Source of the DNA: Alphaproteobacteria bacterium
GTDB taxonomy: Bacteria; Pseudomonadota; Alphaproteobacteria; Rs-D84
Direction of reading: 5' to 3'
Length of the DNA stretch: 64,000 nucleotides
NCBI GenBank assembly: GCA_015062495.1
Contig: SUUN01000002.1
Coordinates: 71,905 to 135,904 of the forward strand
Shown here: positions 3,178 to 43,333 of the stretch, piece after piece
Layout: each line of letters opens with the position of its first letter
Numbering within the stretch: the first letter of the stretch is position 1
Program-made: the position numbers and the translations under genes
Notes under the pieces: model-generated
What the model saw: the letters and a program-made list of their open reading frames with translations, nothing else
The model's database searches: none
What the model was told of the DNA's origin: nothing

Positions 3178-3789
3178 ATGAAATTTTTTGTTAACTTTCT
3201 GTCTGCATTCCGCATTGCCGCGGCATTTGCAATTATCCCGACATTAATGTTCCAAATGTATTGGACAACATTTATTCTGTATGTCCTGGCGGCTGCGTCC
3301 GATTGGTTTGACGGCTATCTGGCGCGCAAATACGATGTATGCAGCAAAATTGGCGGCGTCATGGATCACATTGGGGATAAATTACTGGTTATGAACACAC
3401 TGATTATGTTATCAGTCATGATGCCAGTATGGTTTGTTGTTGTCCCAGTAATTTTGATGATTGCACGCGAATTGTACATTTCTGGCCTGCGCGAATTTTT
3501 GGGCACCCAGAAAATAGAAATGCCAGTACCCAAGGCACGCTTTTCCATGGGCAAAATCAAGACCACCCTGCAAATGGTTTCAATCGCTGCATTTTTGTTA
3601 ATCTTTGCTGTTGGCACATTAATTACGCCTGAATCAGACAGTCGTACATTAATGTACCTGATTTACATCCTGCCCCAGGTTGGCATTTGGGGTCTGTGGC
3701 TGTCATTGGTTGCATCTATTTGGTCTGCAACACAATACACAGGTACATTCCTGGGCCACATGAAAACATTGGACAAGAAAAAGAAATAA
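3178..3789 (+). CDS. pgsA: CDP-diacylglycerol--glycerol-3-phosphate 3-phosphatidyltransferase (CDP-alcohol phosphatidyltransferase family)
   Basis: 203 aa polytopic membrane protein with the DWFDGYLARK...G...D...D CDP-OH transferase signature. Confidence 0.75.
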   Translation: MKFFVNFLSAFRIAAAFAIIPTLMFQMYWTTFILYVLAAASDWFDGYLARKYDVCSKIGGVMDHIGDKLLVMNTLIMLSVMMPVWFVVVPVILMIARELYISGLREFLGTQKIEMPVPKARFSMGKIKTTLQMVSIAAFLLIFAVGTLITPESDSRTLMYLIYILPQVGIWGLWLSLVASIWSATQYTGTFLGHMKTLDKKKK

Positions 3790-3807: not shown

Positions 3808-3833
3808 AAATCCGGCATCCGCCGGATTTTTTA
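3808..3833. terminator. rho-independent terminator hairpin AAATCCGGCATCCGCCGGATTTTTT
   Basis: 6-bp GC-rich stem with a 4-nt loop and a T-tract. The identical 21-mer recurs at 40962-40987. Confidence 0.7.
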
Positions 3834-3887
3834 TTTACCCAGAAACACTTCGGTAAATAAAAGTTTAACGAAGTAAAAAATAAAAAC

Positions 3888-3978
3888 GTCATACCCGCGC
3901 AGGCGGGTATCTATTGCCCCGCAGGGACTGCATAAAAATGTCTGCGACGCAGTGGATTCCCGCCTTCGCGGGAATGAC
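3888..3978. repeat. pair of inverted 24-bp palindromic units flanking a 43-bp core
   Basis: Unit 1 is GTCATACCCGCGCAGGCGGGTATC (3888-3911). Unit 2 read on the reverse strand is GTCATTCCCGCGAAGGCGGGAATC (3955-3978). Each unit is itself a hairpin (CCCGC-N4-GCGGG). The A/T differences between units are compensatory within each stem. Confidence 0.5.
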
Positions 3979-4085
3979 GAGTCTTAATATTAATTGCTCT
4001 TTGCGCTTTGCTATTTGCTCTTTGTTTGCCCAACGGGCAAACTTAAATAAACTTTTATTTAACGTGGTATTCCTATCTCATATCT

Positions 4086-4130: not shown

Positions 4131-4412
4131 TTATTGGATACCGACGCGGAACTGGTCGCCCCATTCGGCCACGTTTTGACCGCCAATGGTACATTTTATA
4201 TCTTCAAAACCATTTTCAACCTGGTTCTTTTTGACAACACTGCTGGTGATTAATCCGCCCGCAGTCCCCAATACAACCCCCGCAATACTGTCAGATGCCA
4301 AACGCGCGGTGTTAAATTTACCTTCTTCGTTTTTCCATACACTAACATCATCCCGGAATTTATTGTGTATCGATGTCAGTTGGCTGTACACACTGTTAAC
4401 CGTCTGGGTGGC
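4131..4412. repeat. ~280-bp inverted repeat (left copy), paired with 7219-7500
   Basis: Encodes the shared C-terminal 93 aa (ATQTVNSVYSQL...GDQFRVGIQ). The six-frame track shows identical antisense ORF products on both copies, implying nucleotide identity over at least 195 nt. Confidence 0.8.
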
Positions 4413-5609
4413 TGTAAACGTCGCAGACAAAACGCATTTTGTTTGCTCGTCATTAATTACCATGTTTGGATTGGTACATTTACATTCATTGTTTACCCAA
4501 TGCGCACCTGTGATTTTGTTGCATTCGACAATATCAGCCTTTAATTGACATTTTTTATTGCGCCATTCGTGTTGTGGGTTTTCGCATTTGCATTCGCCGT
4601 TATCCCAATATGCGCCGGTACTGGCGGCGGCCTCGCAATCACGTTTTAATTGCGCAGGATCGGTTAAAACACATCTGTCGCCATCGCGTTTATAGTTGCT
4701 GTCGGTGCAAACACATTCGCCATTATCCAGACGCAGATTCTTTGCCGCGTCACATTTACACCGGCCGCCCGACCATGTGCCACCTGATTTTACGCATTTG
4801 TTGCGAAGTGCCGCCGCGGCATTTTCGTTATTTATTGTCGCTTGAGATTTAACGCATTTCTTTTTGGTGGTATTAGGCTCGTATTTGGTTTCGCAAGAGT
4901 CTTTGATTAATGTTAAATCCCATCCGTTTGCTGCACATGTCACTGTACATTTTGCGTTGGTTTTAATGTATTCGGTGCTTTCTAATTTTCCAACAACAGA
5001 ACCAGAATTATTTGCCGCTATACAATCTTGTGAAAAGTTATAGCCGTTTGGGTGAGTTACTCCATCCTTGGTTTCACACTTGGGATTACGTGTGTCGGTC
5101 ACGCAATTGGTTTTATCCGCAGTGGGAACGAATCCAGTCTTACATTTATACATTACGCAACCATGATTGCCTGCGCCTAAGACAATACTGTCCCCTGTAG
5201 CACTTTGTATCGCGCCAGTTTTTGTGCCGTCAATTGCGAAAAATTTTTCCACATTTTGGGCCGTGCTACGTACTTCTGAATCCGAACATGTATCAGTTGG
5301 GTTGTGATTTGTCCATGTGTCATTATGACTGCCTGCATCAGAGCAATAAAAGAAACCATTTATACGATGGTTGAACGTATAATCTGGATGCTTGATGGCA
5401 ATTATTGTGCCTTCGCCACATTCGTAGTCATTGTCGCCCCAATTGCAACGATAGCACTGACCAGTTGCGTTATCTCCAACAACACCAGATGTTGATAGAA
5501 TGCTTTTATTGCTGCCACCACCGGGGCTGCATGTCGTAACCTTGCAATCTGCAAACGCATTTGTGCAAATAAGCGTTGAAAACACCACGAAAAATCCAAA
5601 TTTCTTCAT
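4131..5609 (-). CDS. secreted cysteine-rich protein with EGF-like CxC...C repeats and a conserved C-terminal glycine-zipper domain (family member A)
   Basis: 492 aa. Signal peptide MKKFGFFVVFSTLICTNAFA. About 50 Cys, with repeated C-x-C-x(5-12)-C modules (GGRCKCDAAKNLRLDNGECVCTD, GECKCENPQHEWRNKKC, NECKCTNPNMVINDEQTKC). The last 93 aa are identical to those of the 5791..7500 product. Confidence 0.8.
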   Translation of the reverse strand: MKKFGFFVVFSTLICTNAFADCKVTTCSPGGGSNKSILSTSGVVGDNATGQCYRCNWGDNDYECGEGTIIAIKHPDYTFNHRINGFFYCSDAGSHNDTWTNHNPTDTCSDSEVRSTAQNVEKFFAIDGTKTGAIQSATGDSIVLGAGNHGCVMYKCKTGFVPTADKTNCVTDTRNPKCETKDGVTHPNGYNFSQDCIAANNSGSVVGKLESTEYIKTNAKCTVTCAANGWDLTLIKDSCETKYEPNTTKKKCVKSQATINNENAAAALRNKCVKSGGTWSGGRCKCDAAKNLRLDNGECVCTDSNYKRDGDRCVLTDPAQLKRDCEAAASTGAYWDNGECKCENPQHEWRNKKCQLKADIVECNKITGAHWVNNECKCTNPNMVINDEQTKCVLSATFTATQTVNSVYSQLTSIHNKFRDDVSVWKNEEGKFNTARLASDSIAGVVLGTAGGLITSSVVKKNQVENGFEDIKCTIGGQNVAEWGDQFRVGIQ

Positions 5610-5631
5610 AAAAAATCTCCCTTGAAGCCTG

Positions 5632-5659
5632 CCTAATCCAAACGGTGGTTTGGATTAGG
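5632..5659. promoter_or_regulatory. perfect 28-bp palindrome CCTAATCCAAACGGTGGTTTGGATTAGG in the 5' leader of the minus-strand Cys-rich gene
   Basis: Sits 23 nt upstream of the ATG at 5609, just before the RBS AAGGGAGA. A 22-bp core recurs at 5744-5765 upstream of the divergent gene, in the same orientation relative to each gene. Confidence 0.55.
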
Positions 5660-5684
5660 CATATATTCGCGATTTAAAATATCC

Positions 5685-5713
5685 TTGGCACGTCCCGGAA
5701 AATATGATAAAAT
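5685..5713 (+). promoter_or_regulatory. candidate sigma70 promoter TTGGCA-17-TAAAAT for the 5791..7500 gene
   Basis: Spacing and hexamers fit consensus. The predicted start would put the downstream palindrome in the 5' UTR. Confidence 0.3.
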
Positions 5714-5743
5714 AACATGTATTAAGGATAGGAAAATTTGCTG

Positions 5744-5768
5744 AATCCAAACCACCGTTTGGATTAGG
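5744..5768. promoter_or_regulatory. second copy of the palindrome (AATCCAAACCACCGTTTGGATTAGG) in the 5' leader of the plus-strand Cys-rich gene
   Basis: Located 22 nt upstream of the ATG at 5791 and followed by CATATATAAGGGGAGA (RBS). Confidence 0.55.
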
Positions 5769-5790
5769 CATATATAAGGGGAGATAATCC

Positions 5791-7500
5791 ATGAAAAAAA
5801 TTGGTTTAATGATATTGTGCTGTATGATGATTGGCTCGACCGCATGGGGTAAGAGTGATTGCGAATATATCAAGGTTGGTACAGAAAAGTATGGATGTGA
5901 TACATCGGATTATAGTTCCAAGGAAATAGGCTATAACAGTGTTTATCAAGTGCTGGGGACGGGCTATTGCTATACTCAATCTAATACCAAAATGAGTGAT
6001 TTTACAAATAAAAAAGTAGCCTGTTACGACAAATCGGGCAGCGATGACTTGTGGACACGCGAACCCTTGAATCTTGATCCCAACAGTGTTATCAAAGATG
6101 TTAATAATTTGGTTGAGCATGCTGTATATGAAATTGCAAATTGCAAAGGTGATGGGGTGGCGGTTGCGCTGACCACTGAACAAATCCAGAATGGTGCTAA
6201 TGCAGTATGTTTTAACACCCCTGTAAAAATATCATGCCAACGGAATTATGCTTATGATGGCAATAAATGCATTCCGTTTGAGCAATGGGTGGGCGGATTT
6301 GACGATATTTGCAAGGAATCCAGTGTACAGCACGATGGCGTGGCGGATGAAAAAAAATTGAACACTGGAAATGATACGTATGTGTATTGCTATACAGAAC
6401 AGGAATTGCAAGGTATACGCGATAGGTTTTATTACGGTAATTCTTGCCTGGCAAATAAACATAAATTTAGACTTGGCAATAAATATTATAATTGCACGCC
6501 AAGCGGCTGGACCGAGCACACTTTTTCATGGTGTACAACTGGGAACGATTTCCAAAAATGTGATGGTATAGAACACTGTGTCACCGAATTATATGATAAC
6601 AGTACTCAAAAGGCAATAAAGGATGCCATCGGAACCGGTCAGTCAATGATATCTGATACAGGATCAACATATTGCCTGCGTAATGTTTGTGACAAAGGTT
6701 TTAGAAAGGTTGGCGACAAGTGTGTTGCAGAATCGGTTGTGCGTGATAATGAACAACGCGCCCGTAACGCCCAACAATCATGCGTATCAACGGGTGGTGT
6801 GTGGAAAGTAGGCACTTGTATGTGTGCGCCAGATAAAAATCTGGAACGTGATGGAAACACAAAATGTCGGTGCAAGGCAGGATATGAATACATCGATTCC
6901 AATAATAAGTCACAGGGCTGTAAAAAGATGAGTAAGACCATGATGAAAGAGGCCTGTGATGCCGCGTCCGATGCGTCATGGGATGTAAGTACAGAAACCT
7001 GTGTATGCAATATGGGTGATAACTATGTATTCAATTACGCCCAGAAAAAGTGCCTGCCGAACGATACGTATGCGGCATGTCAAAAATTGGTTGCGGCCGG
7101 GGATGCGCGTTGGGATGATACAGCCAAGGTATGTACATGTACTAAAAAGGGATTCGAATTTGACAGGGCGCAATGCGTTGAAACCGCCCAGGCAACCGCT
7201 GAACGGTTAACACGGGAAGCCACCCAGACGGTTAACAGTGTGTACAGTCAACTGACATCGATACACAATAAATTCCGGGATGATGTCAGTGTATGGAAAA
7301 ACGAAGAAGGTAAATTTAACACCGCGCGTTTGGCATCTGACAGTATTGCGGGTGTTGTATTGGGAACTGCGGGCGGATTAATCACCAGCAGTGTTGTCAA
7401 AAAGAACCAGGTTGAAAACGGTTTTGAAGATATAAAATGTACCATTGGCGGTCAAAACGTGGCCGAATGGGGCGACCAGTTCCGCGTCGGTATCCAATAA
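5791..7500 (+). CDS. secreted cysteine-rich protein with EGF-like repeats and a conserved C-terminal glycine-zipper domain (family member B)
   Basis: 569 aa. Signal peptide MKKIGLMILCCMMIGSTAWG. EGF-like modules (GTCMCAPDKNLERDGNTKCRCKAGYEY, ETCVCNMGDNYVFNYAQKKC, KVCTCTKKGFEFDRAQC). C-terminal 93 aa identical to the 4131..5609 product. Confidence 0.8.
   Translation: MKKIGLMILCCMMIGSTAWGKSDCEYIKVGTEKYGCDTSDYSSKEIGYNSVYQVLGTGYCYTQSNTKMSDFTNKKVACYDKSGSDDLWTREPLNLDPNSVIKDVNNLVEHAVYEIANCKGDGVAVALTTEQIQNGANAVCFNTPVKISCQRNYAYDGNKCIPFEQWVGGFDDICKESSVQHDGVADEKKLNTGNDTYVYCYTEQELQGIRDRFYYGNSCLANKHKFRLGNKYYNCTPSGWTEHTFSWCTTGNDFQKCDGIEHCVTELYDNSTQKAIKDAIGTGQSMISDTGSTYCLRNVCDKGFRKVGDKCVAESVVRDNEQRARNAQQSCVSTGGVWKVGTCMCAPDKNLERDGNTKCRCKAGYEYIDSNNKSQGCKKMSKTMMKEACDAASDASWDVSTETCVCNMGDNYVFNYAQKKCLPNDTYAACQKLVAAGDARWDDTAKVCTCTKKGFEFDRAQCVETAQATAERLTREATQTVNSVYSQLTSIHNKFRDDVSVWKNEEGKFNTARLASDSIAGVVLGTAGGLITSSVVKKNQVENGFEDIKCTIGGQNVAEWGDQFRVGIQ
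7219..7500. repeat. ~280-bp inverted repeat (right copy), paired with 4131-4412
   Basis: See the left-copy entry. Confidence 0.8.
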
Positions 7501-40957: not shown

Positions 40958-40961
40958 ACAA

Positions 40962-40987
40962 AAATCCGGCATCCGCCGGATTTTCTA
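40962..40987. terminator. terminator AAAATCCGGCATCCGCCGGATTTTCT (identical hairpin to 3808-3833)
   Basis: Same 21-mer hairpin as the one after pgsA. Confidence 0.7.
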
Positions 40988-41260
40988 TTCAGTGTAATAA
41001 CAATCACCTGCATATGTTCCCGAACCCGTTGTGTCACTAAAACTATTACCGGACGGTATGTAACAACTTGTAATACCACCCGTATTTTGATCCACCGTTG
41101 TTCCATATACACCACCCGACGACGGGCATCGCACACACGATGTACCACTTAAATAATACCCCGTATAACACGAATACGTCGTAGACGAAACCGCACATGT
41201 ATCTGCATACACCGACGACATGCACAACCCCACCCAAAGGGCAAATAATATCTTCTTCAT
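40985..41260 (-). CDS. small secreted cysteine-rich protein
   Basis: 91 aa. Signal peptide MKKILFALWVGLCMSSVYA. 9 Cys, Gly/Thr/Ser/Tyr-rich. Confidence 0.55.
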   Translation of the reverse strand: MKKILFALWVGLCMSSVYADTCAVSSTTYSCYTGYYLSGTSCVRCPSSGGVYGTTVDQNTGGITSCYIPSGNSFSDTTGSGTYAGDCYYTE

Positions 41261-41273
41261 ATCTTTACCCCCT

Positions 41274-41678
41274 TTACATCAAAGAAATTGCCGAACACGC
41301 CGTATTAGTGGCATTAATCAAACAACATCCTGTCCAACCTATTGACGACGAACTGTAATTAACACATTGCCACGCTTCTTCTGTTGATGTTGTAGCCTCA
41401 CACGAAGAATATTGCACCTTCGTATAGCGATGTGCAGATTCCGAATATGTTGTTTCCGCCATCCGCAGACACCGCCCACTTGCATCATTATACGTCCACC
41501 CTGTCGGACACTCCCCTTTGGTAAAGGTTTTACCATTTGTACAACAATGTGTATTCGCACACGTTGCAATACATTCCGACTTTGTTTGATTCAAAAAAAT
41601 TAACGATCCTGTCACACCAAAACAGTCATCAACAAACATTGGCAGCATACCAACACACAAAACAAAAATTTTTTTCAT
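41274..41678 (-). CDS. secreted cysteine-rich protein
   Basis: 134 aa with signal peptide and 14 Cys. Strong RBS AGGAGGA. Preceded by the conserved leader element. Confidence 0.6.
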   Translation of the reverse strand: MKKIFVLCVGMLPMFVDDCFGVTGSLIFLNQTKSECIATCANTHCCTNGKTFTKGECPTGWTYNDASGRCLRMAETTYSESAHRYTKVQYSSCEATTSTEEAWQCVNYSSSSIGWTGCCLINATNTACSAISLM

Positions 41679-41700
41679 TTCAATCCTCCTGATGTTTTAT

Positions 41701-41800
41701 AAAAAACAAAAACCACTGAAAAATCTTTCAAGTGGTTGGAGGTTCGAAACAATTATAGAGAATTGTGGGCTTATTTATATATATCACCACCCTCCAACCC
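41701..41800 (-). promoter_or_regulatory. conserved structured 5' leader element, copy 1 (long stem + terminator-like hairpin + U-tract before the RBS)
   Basis: In mRNA orientation the order is: stem GGGUUGGAGG (41799-41791) pairing with CCUCCAACC (41742-41734) around a ~48-nt loop, then hairpin CCACUUGAAAGAUUUUUCAGUGG (41735-41713), then UUUUUGUUUUUU, then AGGAGGA and AUG at 41678. Homologous to 51107-51210. Confidence 0.55.
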
Positions 41801-42006
41801 AGACGGATTGGCGGTTCAGACATATCTATAAAAAACAACACCACCCAGATAACTTTTTACCCAGTGGTGTCGAAATCTATATCTATGCCTGTATTTCTAT
41901 GTTGCACATTGCAACATCTCTATAACGGGTTTCGACACCCCGCCCACGGGAATTCCCCATCGGCACTTTGAGTATAAACGAAACCACAAATCAACGCAAT
42001 TATAAA

Positions 42007-42136
42007 TTTTGCTTCTATTTACTGGATTGTCCCACTACACTTGCGATGGCAACAAAAAGAGGCTTAAAATTTCTAGAACCTTAAAAACTCTTGTCATTGC
42101 GAGCAAACGCCAGTTTGCGTGGCAATCCAGTCTTAT
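42007..42136. repeat. direct repeat, copy 1 (~130 bp), containing a palindromic SLRxNxSLRGNPV-coding REP-like unit
   Basis: TTTTGCTTCTATTTACTGGATTG ... TTCTAGAACCTTAAAAACTCTTGTCATTGCGAGCAAACGCCAGTTTGCGTGGCAATCCAGTCTTAT. Lies just 3' of the GIY-YIG gene. Inner hairpin is GCAAAC-GCCA-GTTTGC. Confidence 0.75.
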
Positions 42137-42146
42137 GCATTCCGAC

Positions 42147-42455
42147 CTACCTGACCCAAAACATATCTTGTAAACTTAAATCTATCCAATCTGGATTTAT
42201 ACTTTCAATCAAACTTAATTTATATTTTCTTGACTGCGACTTGATATGCTTTTCACGTTCAATAGCATCATTTACATATTGAAACTCTTCCCAATATCCC
42301 AACTTATCACAACCATATCGTGCCGAAAAAGAATCTGGATTTATCTTATTTTTGTGTTCCCAAACACGTCTTGTAACATCATCCGTCATACCAGTGTACA
42401 ACGTACCATTTCTGCGATTAAACATAATATAAACATAGAATTTATATTCTTTCAT
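42147..42455 (-). CDS. GIY-YIG nuclease-superfamily small protein (UPF0213-like)
   Basis: About 102 aa from MKEYKFYVYIMFNRRNGTLYTGMTDDVTRRVWEHK (GIY...YIG-type motif with R and E). The track start at 42515 would run into the upstream repeat. Confidence 0.7.
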   Translation of the reverse strand: MKEYKFYVYIMFNRRNGTLYTGMTDDVTRRVWEHKNKINPDSFSARYGCDKLGYWEEFQYVNDAIEREKHIKSQSRKYKLSLIESINPDWIDLSLQDMFWVR

Positions 42456-42587
42456 TTTGCTTCTATTTACTGGATTGCCGCGGTCGTTAACACTCCCTCG
42501 CAATGACAAAGACACTTAATATTCTAGAACCCTAAAAACTCTTGTCATTGCGAGCAAACGCCAGTTTGTGTGGCAATCCAGTCTTAT
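42455..42587. repeat. direct repeat, copy 2 (~130 bp), immediately 5' of the GIY-YIG start
   Basis: TTTTGCTTCTATTTACTGGATTG ... TCTAGAACCCTAAAAACTCTTGTCATTGCGAGCAAACGCCAGTTTGTGTGGCAATCCAGTCTTAT. About 90% identical to copy 1 in the conserved blocks. Confidence 0.75.
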
Positions 42588-42595
42588 ATTCAAAA

Positions 42596-43333
42596 TTACA
42601 AATCCAAAATACAACCGAACAGTACAGCGAAAAAGAAACACACCGTCCCACCAATTACGAACAAGTGCCAAACCGCATGTGAAAACTTCATCCGTCGCCA
42701 CAGATAAAATATCACCCCGATTGTGTACGCCAATCCCCCCGCCAAAATAAACCACAAACCGCGTTCCGGGATATTGCGAATCATTGCCGGCAAAATGAAC
42801 AGCAACGTCCACCCCATCGCGACATACAACCCAACCATCCATTTTGGCTGTTGCCGTGGATTACGAATTTTCATATACGATCCGAACAACACAATCGCCC
42901 ACAGGATTCCAAACACCGTCCATCCAATCAACCCACGCAAATTCACCAACAAAAACGGCGTATATGTACCCGCAATCAACGCATAGATTGCAACGCTGTC
43001 CCACACTTCAAAAAAACACTCGTGCTTTTTACCAATTGTTGCGTGACACATTGTTGAACCAAAATACAACGTTATCATTGTCACACCAAAAATCGCGCAC
43101 GACACAACCGCCCATGCATCGCCCTTAATCCCTGCGAACACCACCAACAATGTTAATGCCGCAATGGCCAATCCGATGCCAATACCGTGCGTTAAAATAT
43201 TTACGACTTCTTCGGCGTGGGTTGACGGCTTTTCCCATCGAAACAACCCCGTCGCCCGCAAAACCTTTAACAATTTTGATGCATGTTCATCTTTCTTGAC
43301 TGCGCGTATCCGCGCCCGTTTTGATTTCGTCAT
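42596..43333 (-). CDS. hemolysin-III family membrane protein (PAQR/HlyIII)
   Basis: 245 aa, 7 transmembrane helices. Conserved NxxTHGIG and SHAVWHLFV motifs. Confidence 0.75.
   Translation of the reverse strand: MTKSKRARIRAVKKDEHASKLLKVLRATGLFRWEKPSTHAEEVVNILTHGIGIGLAIAALTLLVVFAGIKGDAWAVVSCAIFGVTMITLYFGSTMCHATIGKKHECFFEVWDSVAIYALIAGTYTPFLLVNLRGLIGWTVFGILWAIVLFGSYMKIRNPRQQPKWMVGLYVAMGWTLLFILPAMIRNIPERGLWFILAGGLAYTIGVIFYLWRRMKFSHAVWHLFVIGGTVCFFFAVLFGCILDL

Follow-up and report, generated by a model that had tools for sequence, protein, structure and literature searches.

Why should the gene of a 102-aa nuclease lie between two copies of a palindromic repeat, and do gene and repeats belong together? 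The locus that raises this question lies in a 64,000-nt stretch of contig SUUN01000002.1 (assembly GCA_015062495.1, Alphaproteobacteria bacterium), hereafter the window, where a sequence-only reading had described a small GIY-YIG gene (here ssn) enclosed by ~130-bp repeats and had proposed a small selfish or mobile module, either homing-endonuclease-like or a gene captured between copies of a repetitive extragenic palindrome (REP)-like element. Our analysis indicates that the region very probably comprises a nuclease gene of the Ssn family and the hairpin repeats cognate to it, in the SRM-ssn-SRM layout described for that family. This system is known from the literature and its basic picture is unchanged; the novelty is an arm variant, together with evidence related to mobility.

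Proteins of the Ssn family (CDD cd10448) have a length of ~94 aa and GIY-YIG as their single domain, and their genes are flanked by hairpin repeats, called NTS in Neisseria, where the layout is NTS-ssnA-NTS, and SRM generally (Chenal et al., Nat Commun 2025, PMC11893778). The NTS consensus, CGTCATTCCCGCGMAVGCGGGAATCYRG, contains the dRS3 repeat, and at least one SRM was found near 71% of the Ssn homologues examined in that study, with repeats on both sides in 42%. SsnA recognises its hairpin only as single-stranded DNA (ssDNA) and only in a single orientation; the cut falls a few nucleotides upstream of the hairpin, and neither double-stranded DNA (dsDNA) nor RNA is acted upon. For cutting, the nucleotides immediately 5' of the palindrome are important, and for binding the C immediately 3' of it. 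SsnA of N. meningitidis modulates natural transformation, and the authors likened NTS-ssnA-NTS to an insertion sequence (IS) and to the pairing of REP sequences with REP-associated tyrosine transposases (RAYT), suggesting domestication (PMC11893778). The small selfish module proposed for the window, if one allows that it may have been domesticated, is the same idea.

A bare GIY-YIG nuclease gene between two composite hairpin elements

The ~102-aa protein was recovered both from the list of open reading frames (ORFs) and by Pfam, whose GIY-YIG model (PF01541) covers residues 5-77 with E = 1.5e-15. Pfam gave no second domain in the protein, T5orf172 scoring 18.5 bits, below its cut-off. Seven residues (Y9, Y20, G22, R30, H34, E68 and N87) are invariant across 44 aligned homologues, and the Tyr-11-Tyr-48-Glu spacing of the window protein is equivalent to the 11/47 of N. 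meningitidis SsnA (Y6/Y17/E64), given a one-residue insertion in the window protein that is seen in the alignment. Sequence searches of NCBIfam, PADLOC and PDB yielded nothing useful for classifying the protein: PADLOC returned no match, PDB a marginal one to 1ZG2 (BH0048, UPF0213 / YhbQ-type, E = 0.0016), and NCBIfam a sub-threshold one, in which the group I intron endonuclease model TIGR01453 scored 16.4 bits against a cut-off of 56. The homing-endonuclease reading was rejected on this score, on the bare catalytic domain, a length of 102 aa leaving no room for a second one, and on the ssDNA-only activity of the family (PMC11893778).

Scans for direct repeats and for the 39-nt palindromic unit both placed the gene between two repeat copies. 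Segments 42006-42029 and 42454-42477 (24 nt) are 100% identical, segments 42071-42136 and 42522-42587 (66 nt) are 97% identical, and the 39-nt unit occurs exactly twice in the window when up to one mismatch is allowed, compared with no occurrence in 100 shuffles. The ~90% identity first given for the copies proved too high, as their central ~40 nt are unrelated (42030-42070 versus 42478-42521) and lower the overall alignment to 85%; these middle segments carry different arm types. Beyond the two copies that flank ssn, no further composite ~130-bp element is present in the window. Copy 2 lies between the stop codon of hlyIII and the start codon of ssn, of which it overlaps the AT, and copy 1 ends 10 nt past the ssn stop codon, in agreement with the close abutment described before. 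The palindromic units also hold the coding frames that had been noted (MSLRANASLRGNPV and MSLRANASLCGNPV), and the suggested link to a widely dispersed palindromic element yielding SLRAKRSNP-type pseudo-ORFs was borne out.

Two ~38-nt arms in inverted orientation make up each ~130-bp repeat, and both strands of a repeat fold as a long imperfect hairpin (z = -3.1 to -6.2 for the two elements), at -44 to -49 kcal/mol with z about -6 for copy 2 and at -39 to -40 kcal/mol with z = -3 to -4 for copy 1. The gene is flanked by arms within 500 bp on its 5' and 3' sides, each with an outer partner arm.

Arm design and its relation to the NTS/SRM repeat

The arms of the window share a plan of ~38 nt, in which a GTC tag comes first, a variable inner hairpin enclosed by the closing stem ATTGC/GCAAT next, and CCAG last. 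Written as GTC-ATTGC...GCAAT-C(CAG), they parallel the GTC-ATTCCC...GGGAAT-C of NTS, with the tag, the palindrome and the following C all kept. Judged by this correspondence, the arms, which we had defined independently (GTCAT, stem-loop, ATCCAG), are the published NTS/SRM repeat.

Closing stems differ between loci by compensatory changes (TGC/GCA, TCC/GGA, TCT/AGA, CCC/GGG, GGCC/GGCC). The inner hairpins of the TGCGAG subtype, to which the window arms belong, likewise have wholly different sequences and are still paired in the window, in a Neisseriaceae metagenome-assembled genome (MAG; L020), in a Patescibacteria MAG (L059) and at the metagenomic loci L171 and L062. The TGC type is the commonest arm type beside homologues, accounting for 39 of the 73 loci that could be typed. 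Arm type follows nuclease relatedness modestly: the nearest-neighbour nuclease has the same arm type in 49/73 loci, and the observed difference was equalled in 2 of 1000 permutations. We also observed that widespread short TGC-type arms hold GCGNAGC with N free (GCGAAGC, GCGCAGC, GCGTAGC and GCGGAGC, for example in L018, L024 and L036), which matches the unusually stable d(GCGAAGC) DNA mini-hairpin and would fit recognition of ssDNA.

When the arms of the window are folded singly as ssDNA, the two in NTS orientation on the + strand are well formed. The intact arm of copy 1 has its closing stem and an inner CAAAC/GTTTG hairpin (-8.6 kcal/mol, z = -2.7), and its counterpart in copy 2 has the ATTGC/GCAAT closing stem and an inner hairpin (-6.4 kcal/mol); these two arms are direct repeats, 451 nt apart. 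The remaining arm of copy 1 is degenerate, and its orthologue in two relatives with a filled site (L003/L005) is closer to consensus, GTCATTGCAAGCGTAGCGCGGCAATCT.

Several observations weigh against the assignment to the Ssn system. The published SRM pattern, HGTCWYN(0-2)YYVSBRHN(0-5)WNVSBRGN(0-2)RNCYNB, is matched by none of the gene-flanking arms of the window, and these arms also depart from the NTS consensus. On the coding strand, the arm just upstream of the gene folds poorly as ssDNA (-4.4 kcal/mol, z = -0.35) and the downstream one is the degenerate arm. The window holds only four arms of its own type, the degenerate one included, too few to demonstrate that the genome of this organism has many such repeats. 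Finally, the family assignment rests on homology to NTS-flanked homologues plus architecture, and enzymatic activity, strand preference and biological role are inferred throughout.

The published pattern was derived for searching, from 29 genomes, and does not define a repeat by function. Nor does it detect the arm types TGCGAG and TCCTGC, which are common beside homologues, and it matches somewhere in only 17 of the 80 loci that we selected by gene (see below). As it misses the arm type with the largest share, repeat counts based on it are probably too low. Its only matches in the window are the two arms of a canonical NTS-type inverted pair (Table 1), which is intergenic, lies between the convergent ORFs 3178-3789 and 4131-5609, and has no nuclease gene nearby. 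One genome thus carries two arm types, and ssn is flanked by just one of them.

Table 1. Positions of the nuclease gene, its repeats and neighbouring features in the window
Feature	Position	Strand	Description	Basis
ssn gene	42147..42455	-	102-aa single-domain GIY-YIG nuclease; stop codon 42147-42149, ATG 42453-42455	ORF list
Upstream composite element (copy 2)	42454..42587	.	15-nt tail, arm, 36-nt loop, second arm; one long hairpin	
SRM arm in copy 2, coding strand	42470..42507	-	GTCATTGCGAG-GGAGTGTTAACGACCGC-GGCAATCCAG; NTS orientation on coding strand; ends 14 nt before ATG	Half-element scan
SRM arm in copy 2, outer	42544..42581	+	GTCATTGCGAG-CAAAC GCCA GTTTG-TGTGGCAATCCAG; NTS orientation	Half-element and structure-based scans
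Promoter-like site facing ssn	42521..42548	-	ATGACA, 16 nt, TAGAAT; 10/12 matches	Consensus scan
Downstream composite element (copy 1)	42006..42136	.	15-nt tail, degenerate arm, loop, intact arm	
Intact SRM arm in copy 1	42093..42130	+	NTS orientation; complement begins 16 nt past ssn stop codon	
Degenerate SRM arm in copy 1	42021..42052	-	GTTGCCATCGCAAGTGTAGTGGGACAATCCAGT; no proper hairpin in fold	Six-assembly alignment, scan
Present/absent block	40959..42595	.	SRM-ssn-SRM cassette, ~300 nt non-coding, two small Cys-rich ORFs	BLASTN
Cys-rich ORF, 134 aa	41274-41678	-	Hydrophobic N-terminus, no Pfam match	
Cys-rich ORF, 91 aa	40985-41260	-	Hydrophobic N-terminus, no Pfam match	
Canonical NTS-type SRM inverted pair	3887-3914 / 3952-3979	+ / -	CGTCATACCCGCGCAGGCGGGTATC / CGTCATTCCCGCGAAGGCGGGAATCC; 37 nt between	

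Hairpins cluster around nuclease genes and also occur apart from them

The relation between hairpins and nuclease genes was approached from both ends. Selecting by hairpin, we scanned 185,579 species genomes for CTGGATTGC-N(4-32)-CTCGCAATGAC and obtained at least 120 loci, the matches listed coming from Alpha-, Beta-, Gamma- and Deltaproteobacteria, Bacteroidota, Melainabacteria, Patescibacteria, Spirochaetota, Verrucomicrobiota and Fibrobacterota. The element in these loci is typically a compact inverted pair of 75-85 bp with sharp edges, placed between ordinary genes, and no recurrent cargo was found between their distant half-elements. A nuclease profile built from 120 homologues, which recovered 16/16 positive controls, found a nuclease ORF in none of the 120 loci among the matches listed (~840 kb), a result that fits many repeats per single nuclease gene.

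Selecting by gene, we collected 80 metagenome loci with 38-61% tblastn identity over the best aligned segment. A sequence-only arm pattern placed an arm within 400 nt of the gene in 39/80 of them; after a de novo inverted-repeat alignment had shown other stem types, this pattern was replaced by a structure-based arm definition, with which an arm lies within 200 nt of the gene in 67 of the 80 loci (84%). Such elements had been said to stand often beside small GIY-YIG genes, and this frequency agrees. Arm density reaches 5.44/kb near the gene (164 arms) versus 0.34/kb farther off, and shuffled flanks gave ~0.5 arms in total. The commonest layout is arm, gene, inverted arm (24/80); near-canonical NTS arms stand beside several metagenomic homologues (e.g. 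L175, L206 and L210), and at L141 and L157 the gene-flanking arms are perfect inverted repeats of 26-28 nt, variable bases included. In the window together with loci L001-L015 (~230 kb), all arms of the window type lie within 1 kb of a nuclease gene. Homologues of ssn were also found on 33 predicted viral contigs (IMG/VR, L228-L260), 16 of them with arms within 250 nt, and several of these contigs share the window layout L.R-gene-L.

These numbers bear on whether the association is passive, the hairpins being ordinary REP-like repeats or terminators of the host with the nuclease gene between them by chance. The abundance of gene-less copies in the hairpin-selected sample would suit this account, as would the position of hairpins in gaps between genes that are convergent or in tandem, the places to expect terminators. 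Against it stand the 16-fold excess of arms within 200 nt of the gene over distant sequence of the same loci, the confinement of window-type arms to the 1 kb around nuclease genes in the ~230 kb just described, and the specific binding and cleavage established by the published biochemistry (PMC11893778), so that we consider a passive association highly improbable. For the same reason the proposal of a gene captured between REP-like copies does not hold up, the link between gene and repeat being far too systematic for passive capture.

A promoterless ORF between imperfect palindromes of the attC type, as in an integron cassette, offers another explanation for the order of a ~130-bp repeat, a short ORF and a second repeat, and the arms are indeed imperfect palindromes with unpaired bases. 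Conservation of the arm sequence GTCAT...ATCCAG across phyla, however, goes beyond structure alone, hairpin arrays without ORFs exist (L008 and L136), the nuclease is the only recurrent ORF between arms, and no integrase was called beside the cassette in the loci fetched by protein look-up, the whole genome not having been searched. An integron-like origin is hardly credible on these grounds, and it was dropped.

Arms can also be numerous at a single locus. Seven arms in the same orientation follow one another with a 55-nt period upstream of an ssn homologue (L136, 3563-4000), and arrays surround the homologues at L009 and at L008, where more than 10 alternating arms span 5071-6757. Such tandem arrays show local amplification of the repeats.

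Possible roles of the hairpins in RNA

Hairpins in these positions could have their main effect in RNA, by terminating hlyIII transcription, by regulating or stabilising the nuclease mRNA from its 5' untranslated region, or as an RNase III site, with the link to DNA being secondary. Both strands of the elements fold strongly as RNA, copy 2 stands between the hlyIII stop and the ssn start and contains a promoter-like site, and three substitutions in the degenerate copy 1 arm would make G-U pairs on the + strand. The substitutions in L003/L005, however, favour the opposite strand, so that G-U-compatible changes give no uniform signal for either strand. Rfam gave no meaningful match, either for the whole window at the gathering threshold or for 41900-42700 in E-value mode, copies without the gene stand between unrelated genes in both orientations, and SsnA showed no RNA binding (PMC11893778). 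We regard a mainly RNA-level function as improbable.

The promoter-like site, a pattern match only, combines the conserved end of an arm (GCAATGACA) with the copy 2 loop, and the number of promoter-like sites in the region is not above shuffled expectation. It is conceivable that -35-like hexamers commonly come from arm ends.

Filled and empty sites in relatives

Many JGI, NCBI and ENA assemblies encode the identical protein at the same locus, between hlyIII and the 134-aa ORF (23 contigs were read), and an alignment of six assemblies shows that the flanking elements are conserved at this locus in close relatives. In related MAGs, homologues of 69-75% identity occupy three other, unrelated loci (mraZ/L33, era/murJ and ftsK/mgsA), all of them ringed by arms of the same family, at times in arrays of more than 10.

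We used HlyIII homologues to fetch the same locus in further relatives and compared empty-site loci with the window by BLASTN. In L216, whose HlyIII is 96% identical (~82% at the DNA level), 103 nt separate hlyIII from dksA, versus 1,637 nt in the window. In a second synteny background hlyIII is followed directly by a tRNA synthetase gene with ThrRS-type Pfam domains (L218-L221), and L003/L005 carry a 1.7-kb insert between these two genes. No arms were found at the empty sites of relatives. The insert in the relatives' filled sites also holds the 134-aa Cys-rich ORF, to which the window adds the 91-aa one, and an identical 134-aa protein was found solely beside the nuclease cassette. Since the presence or absence concerns a 1.6-kb block, the cassette was gained or lost within a larger block and not as a neat arm-to-arm unit.

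Over species-level timescales the cassette has been acquired, lost or moved to other loci, and in close strains it stays in place. A static arrangement, which the sequence-only reading had set against its mobile module, therefore holds in part: the repeat is present at many loci without the gene and the cassette is static in close relatives, but it is absent from species-level relatives and has homologues elsewhere in other relatives.

Rearrangement was also seen on a finer scale. Among strains L010-L015, which represent one locus, the arm that follows the gene is intact in L010, L011 and L013 and cut at GGCA|TCCG in L012 and L014; the contig of L015 stops too early past this arm for full judgement. 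Arm truncation or recombination among these strains suggests ongoing rearrangement inside arm clusters. In addition, empty-site relatives carry a conserved leader-like segment, ACTACAACAACTACAACCCCTTTGGGGGTGTAA, before the tRNA synthetase gene (L218 at ~3810-3870, L219 and L221), which may be related to the leader element near 41700-42000 of the window.

Could the arm-ssn-arm unit move by itself? It might be an active minimal mobile element of ~0.45-0.6 kb that uses its own nuclease and ssDNA intermediates, in an IS-like manner or by homing into hairpin repeats, an account that we find possible yet doubtful; equally tentative is its corollary, that gene-less arm pairs are non-autonomous derivatives comparable to MITEs (miniature inverted-repeat transposable elements) or to REPINs. 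The homologues at unrelated loci, each with its arms, argue for such an element, as do the empty sites that lack any arm, the perfect inverted-repeat arms of L141 and L157, the sharp-edged gene-less pairs that are widespread across phyla, and the homologues on predicted viral contigs. The geometry would suit it as well, since cuts 5' of the two well-folding arms in the same orientation would free unit-length ssDNA, and the authors of the Ssn study remarked on the IS-like layout (PMC11893778).

Other observations point away from mobility. The indel at this locus is a 1.6-kb block with two unrelated ORFs and no arm at its far end, the cassette is static among close strains, and the gene is found at both kinds of junction within arm arrays (R^L or L^R), so that the ends of the unit are not fixed. 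No target-site duplication was noticed in the flanks that were read, a systematic search not having been made, and no excision product was observed. GIY-YIG superfamily enzymes are hydrolytic, and we know of no strand-transfer activity among them. Self-mobility of the unit is favoured by its geometry and by the patchy distribution, yet we judge it rather unlikely that the unit is a half-kb mobile element, which would be smaller than any known autonomous bacterial IS, spreading through ssDNA intermediates or by homing into the loops of hairpin pairs, with gene-less pairs as its progeny.

A candidate mechanism and its significance

If the window protein behaves like the published family, an Ssn nuclease at this locus would act as follows. 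When replication, transformation, conjugation or repair turns the DNA single-stranded, an arm would fold into its hairpin; the nuclease would bind this hairpin in a single orientation, with the C after the palindrome and the GTC before it as key contacts, and would cut the strand that holds the arm, a few nucleotides 5' of it, sparing dsDNA and RNA. Here the protein would presumably act on its own TGCGAG-type arms, its preferred sites being the two well-formed + strand arms, and cuts 5' of both would release a unit of 451 nt. A likely role would be to restrict or modulate ssDNA bearing these repeats, whether incoming or exposed, and, as in the REP/RAYT case, the nuclease may also have a part in how the repeat family spreads and is maintained.

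The Ssn family entered the literature only in 2025. Pairs of filled and empty sites and relocated cassettes in relatives bear on whether such units are mobile or domesticated; were the mobile account true, the TGCGAG-type arms would mean that the repeat census of the family is substantially underestimated. For enzyme discovery, the window protein is of interest as a candidate ssDNA nuclease whose recognition hairpin would be new.

Comparison with known systems

Several known systems resemble the arrangement in the window. The small GIY-YIG proteins of the UPF0213 / YhbQ type (PDB 1ZG2, BH0048) share its size and bare domain, but the sequence match is only the marginal one reported above, and they form what we take to be a separate CDD family, cd10456, for which we know of no reported association with hairpin repeats. 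GIY-YIG homing endonucleases such as I-TevI and phage Seg proteins have the catalytic domain in common with the window protein, as well as a patchy distribution like that of selfish elements. They recognise long dsDNA sites, however, whereas the Ssn family cuts ssDNA at hairpins, and the window protein comes without a DNA-binding domain, an intron or an intein.

REP/REPIN repeats with their RAYT share more of the layout: short tagged palindromes, single or in inverted pairs (REPIN-like), are dispersed intergenically, hairpins are recognised in ssDNA, and the repeats also enclose a single small nuclease gene. The enzymes differ fundamentally, RAYT being HUH Y1 proteins (IS200/IS605-related) that form a covalent tyrosine intermediate and the window gene encoding a hydrolytic GIY-YIG protein of unrelated fold, and the repeats differ too, since the arm sequence of the window is kept across phyla whereas REP sequences are lineage-specific.

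With the Ssn/NTS-SRM system the window shares a ~100-aa single-domain GIY-YIG protein with the catalytic Tyr/Tyr/Glu, hairpin repeats of 20-50 nt on both sides of the gene, with GTC(A/T) before the palindrome and C after it, and the occurrence of repeats as inverted pairs and away from the gene. It differs in its host, an uncultured gut/rumen alphaproteobacterium-like MAG, in the few copies of the repeat visible in 64 kb, and in the arms themselves, which measure 38 nt, are closed by a TGC/GCA stem with a second hairpin nested inside it, escape the published pattern, and are joined into two composite ~130-bp hairpins in direct orientation.

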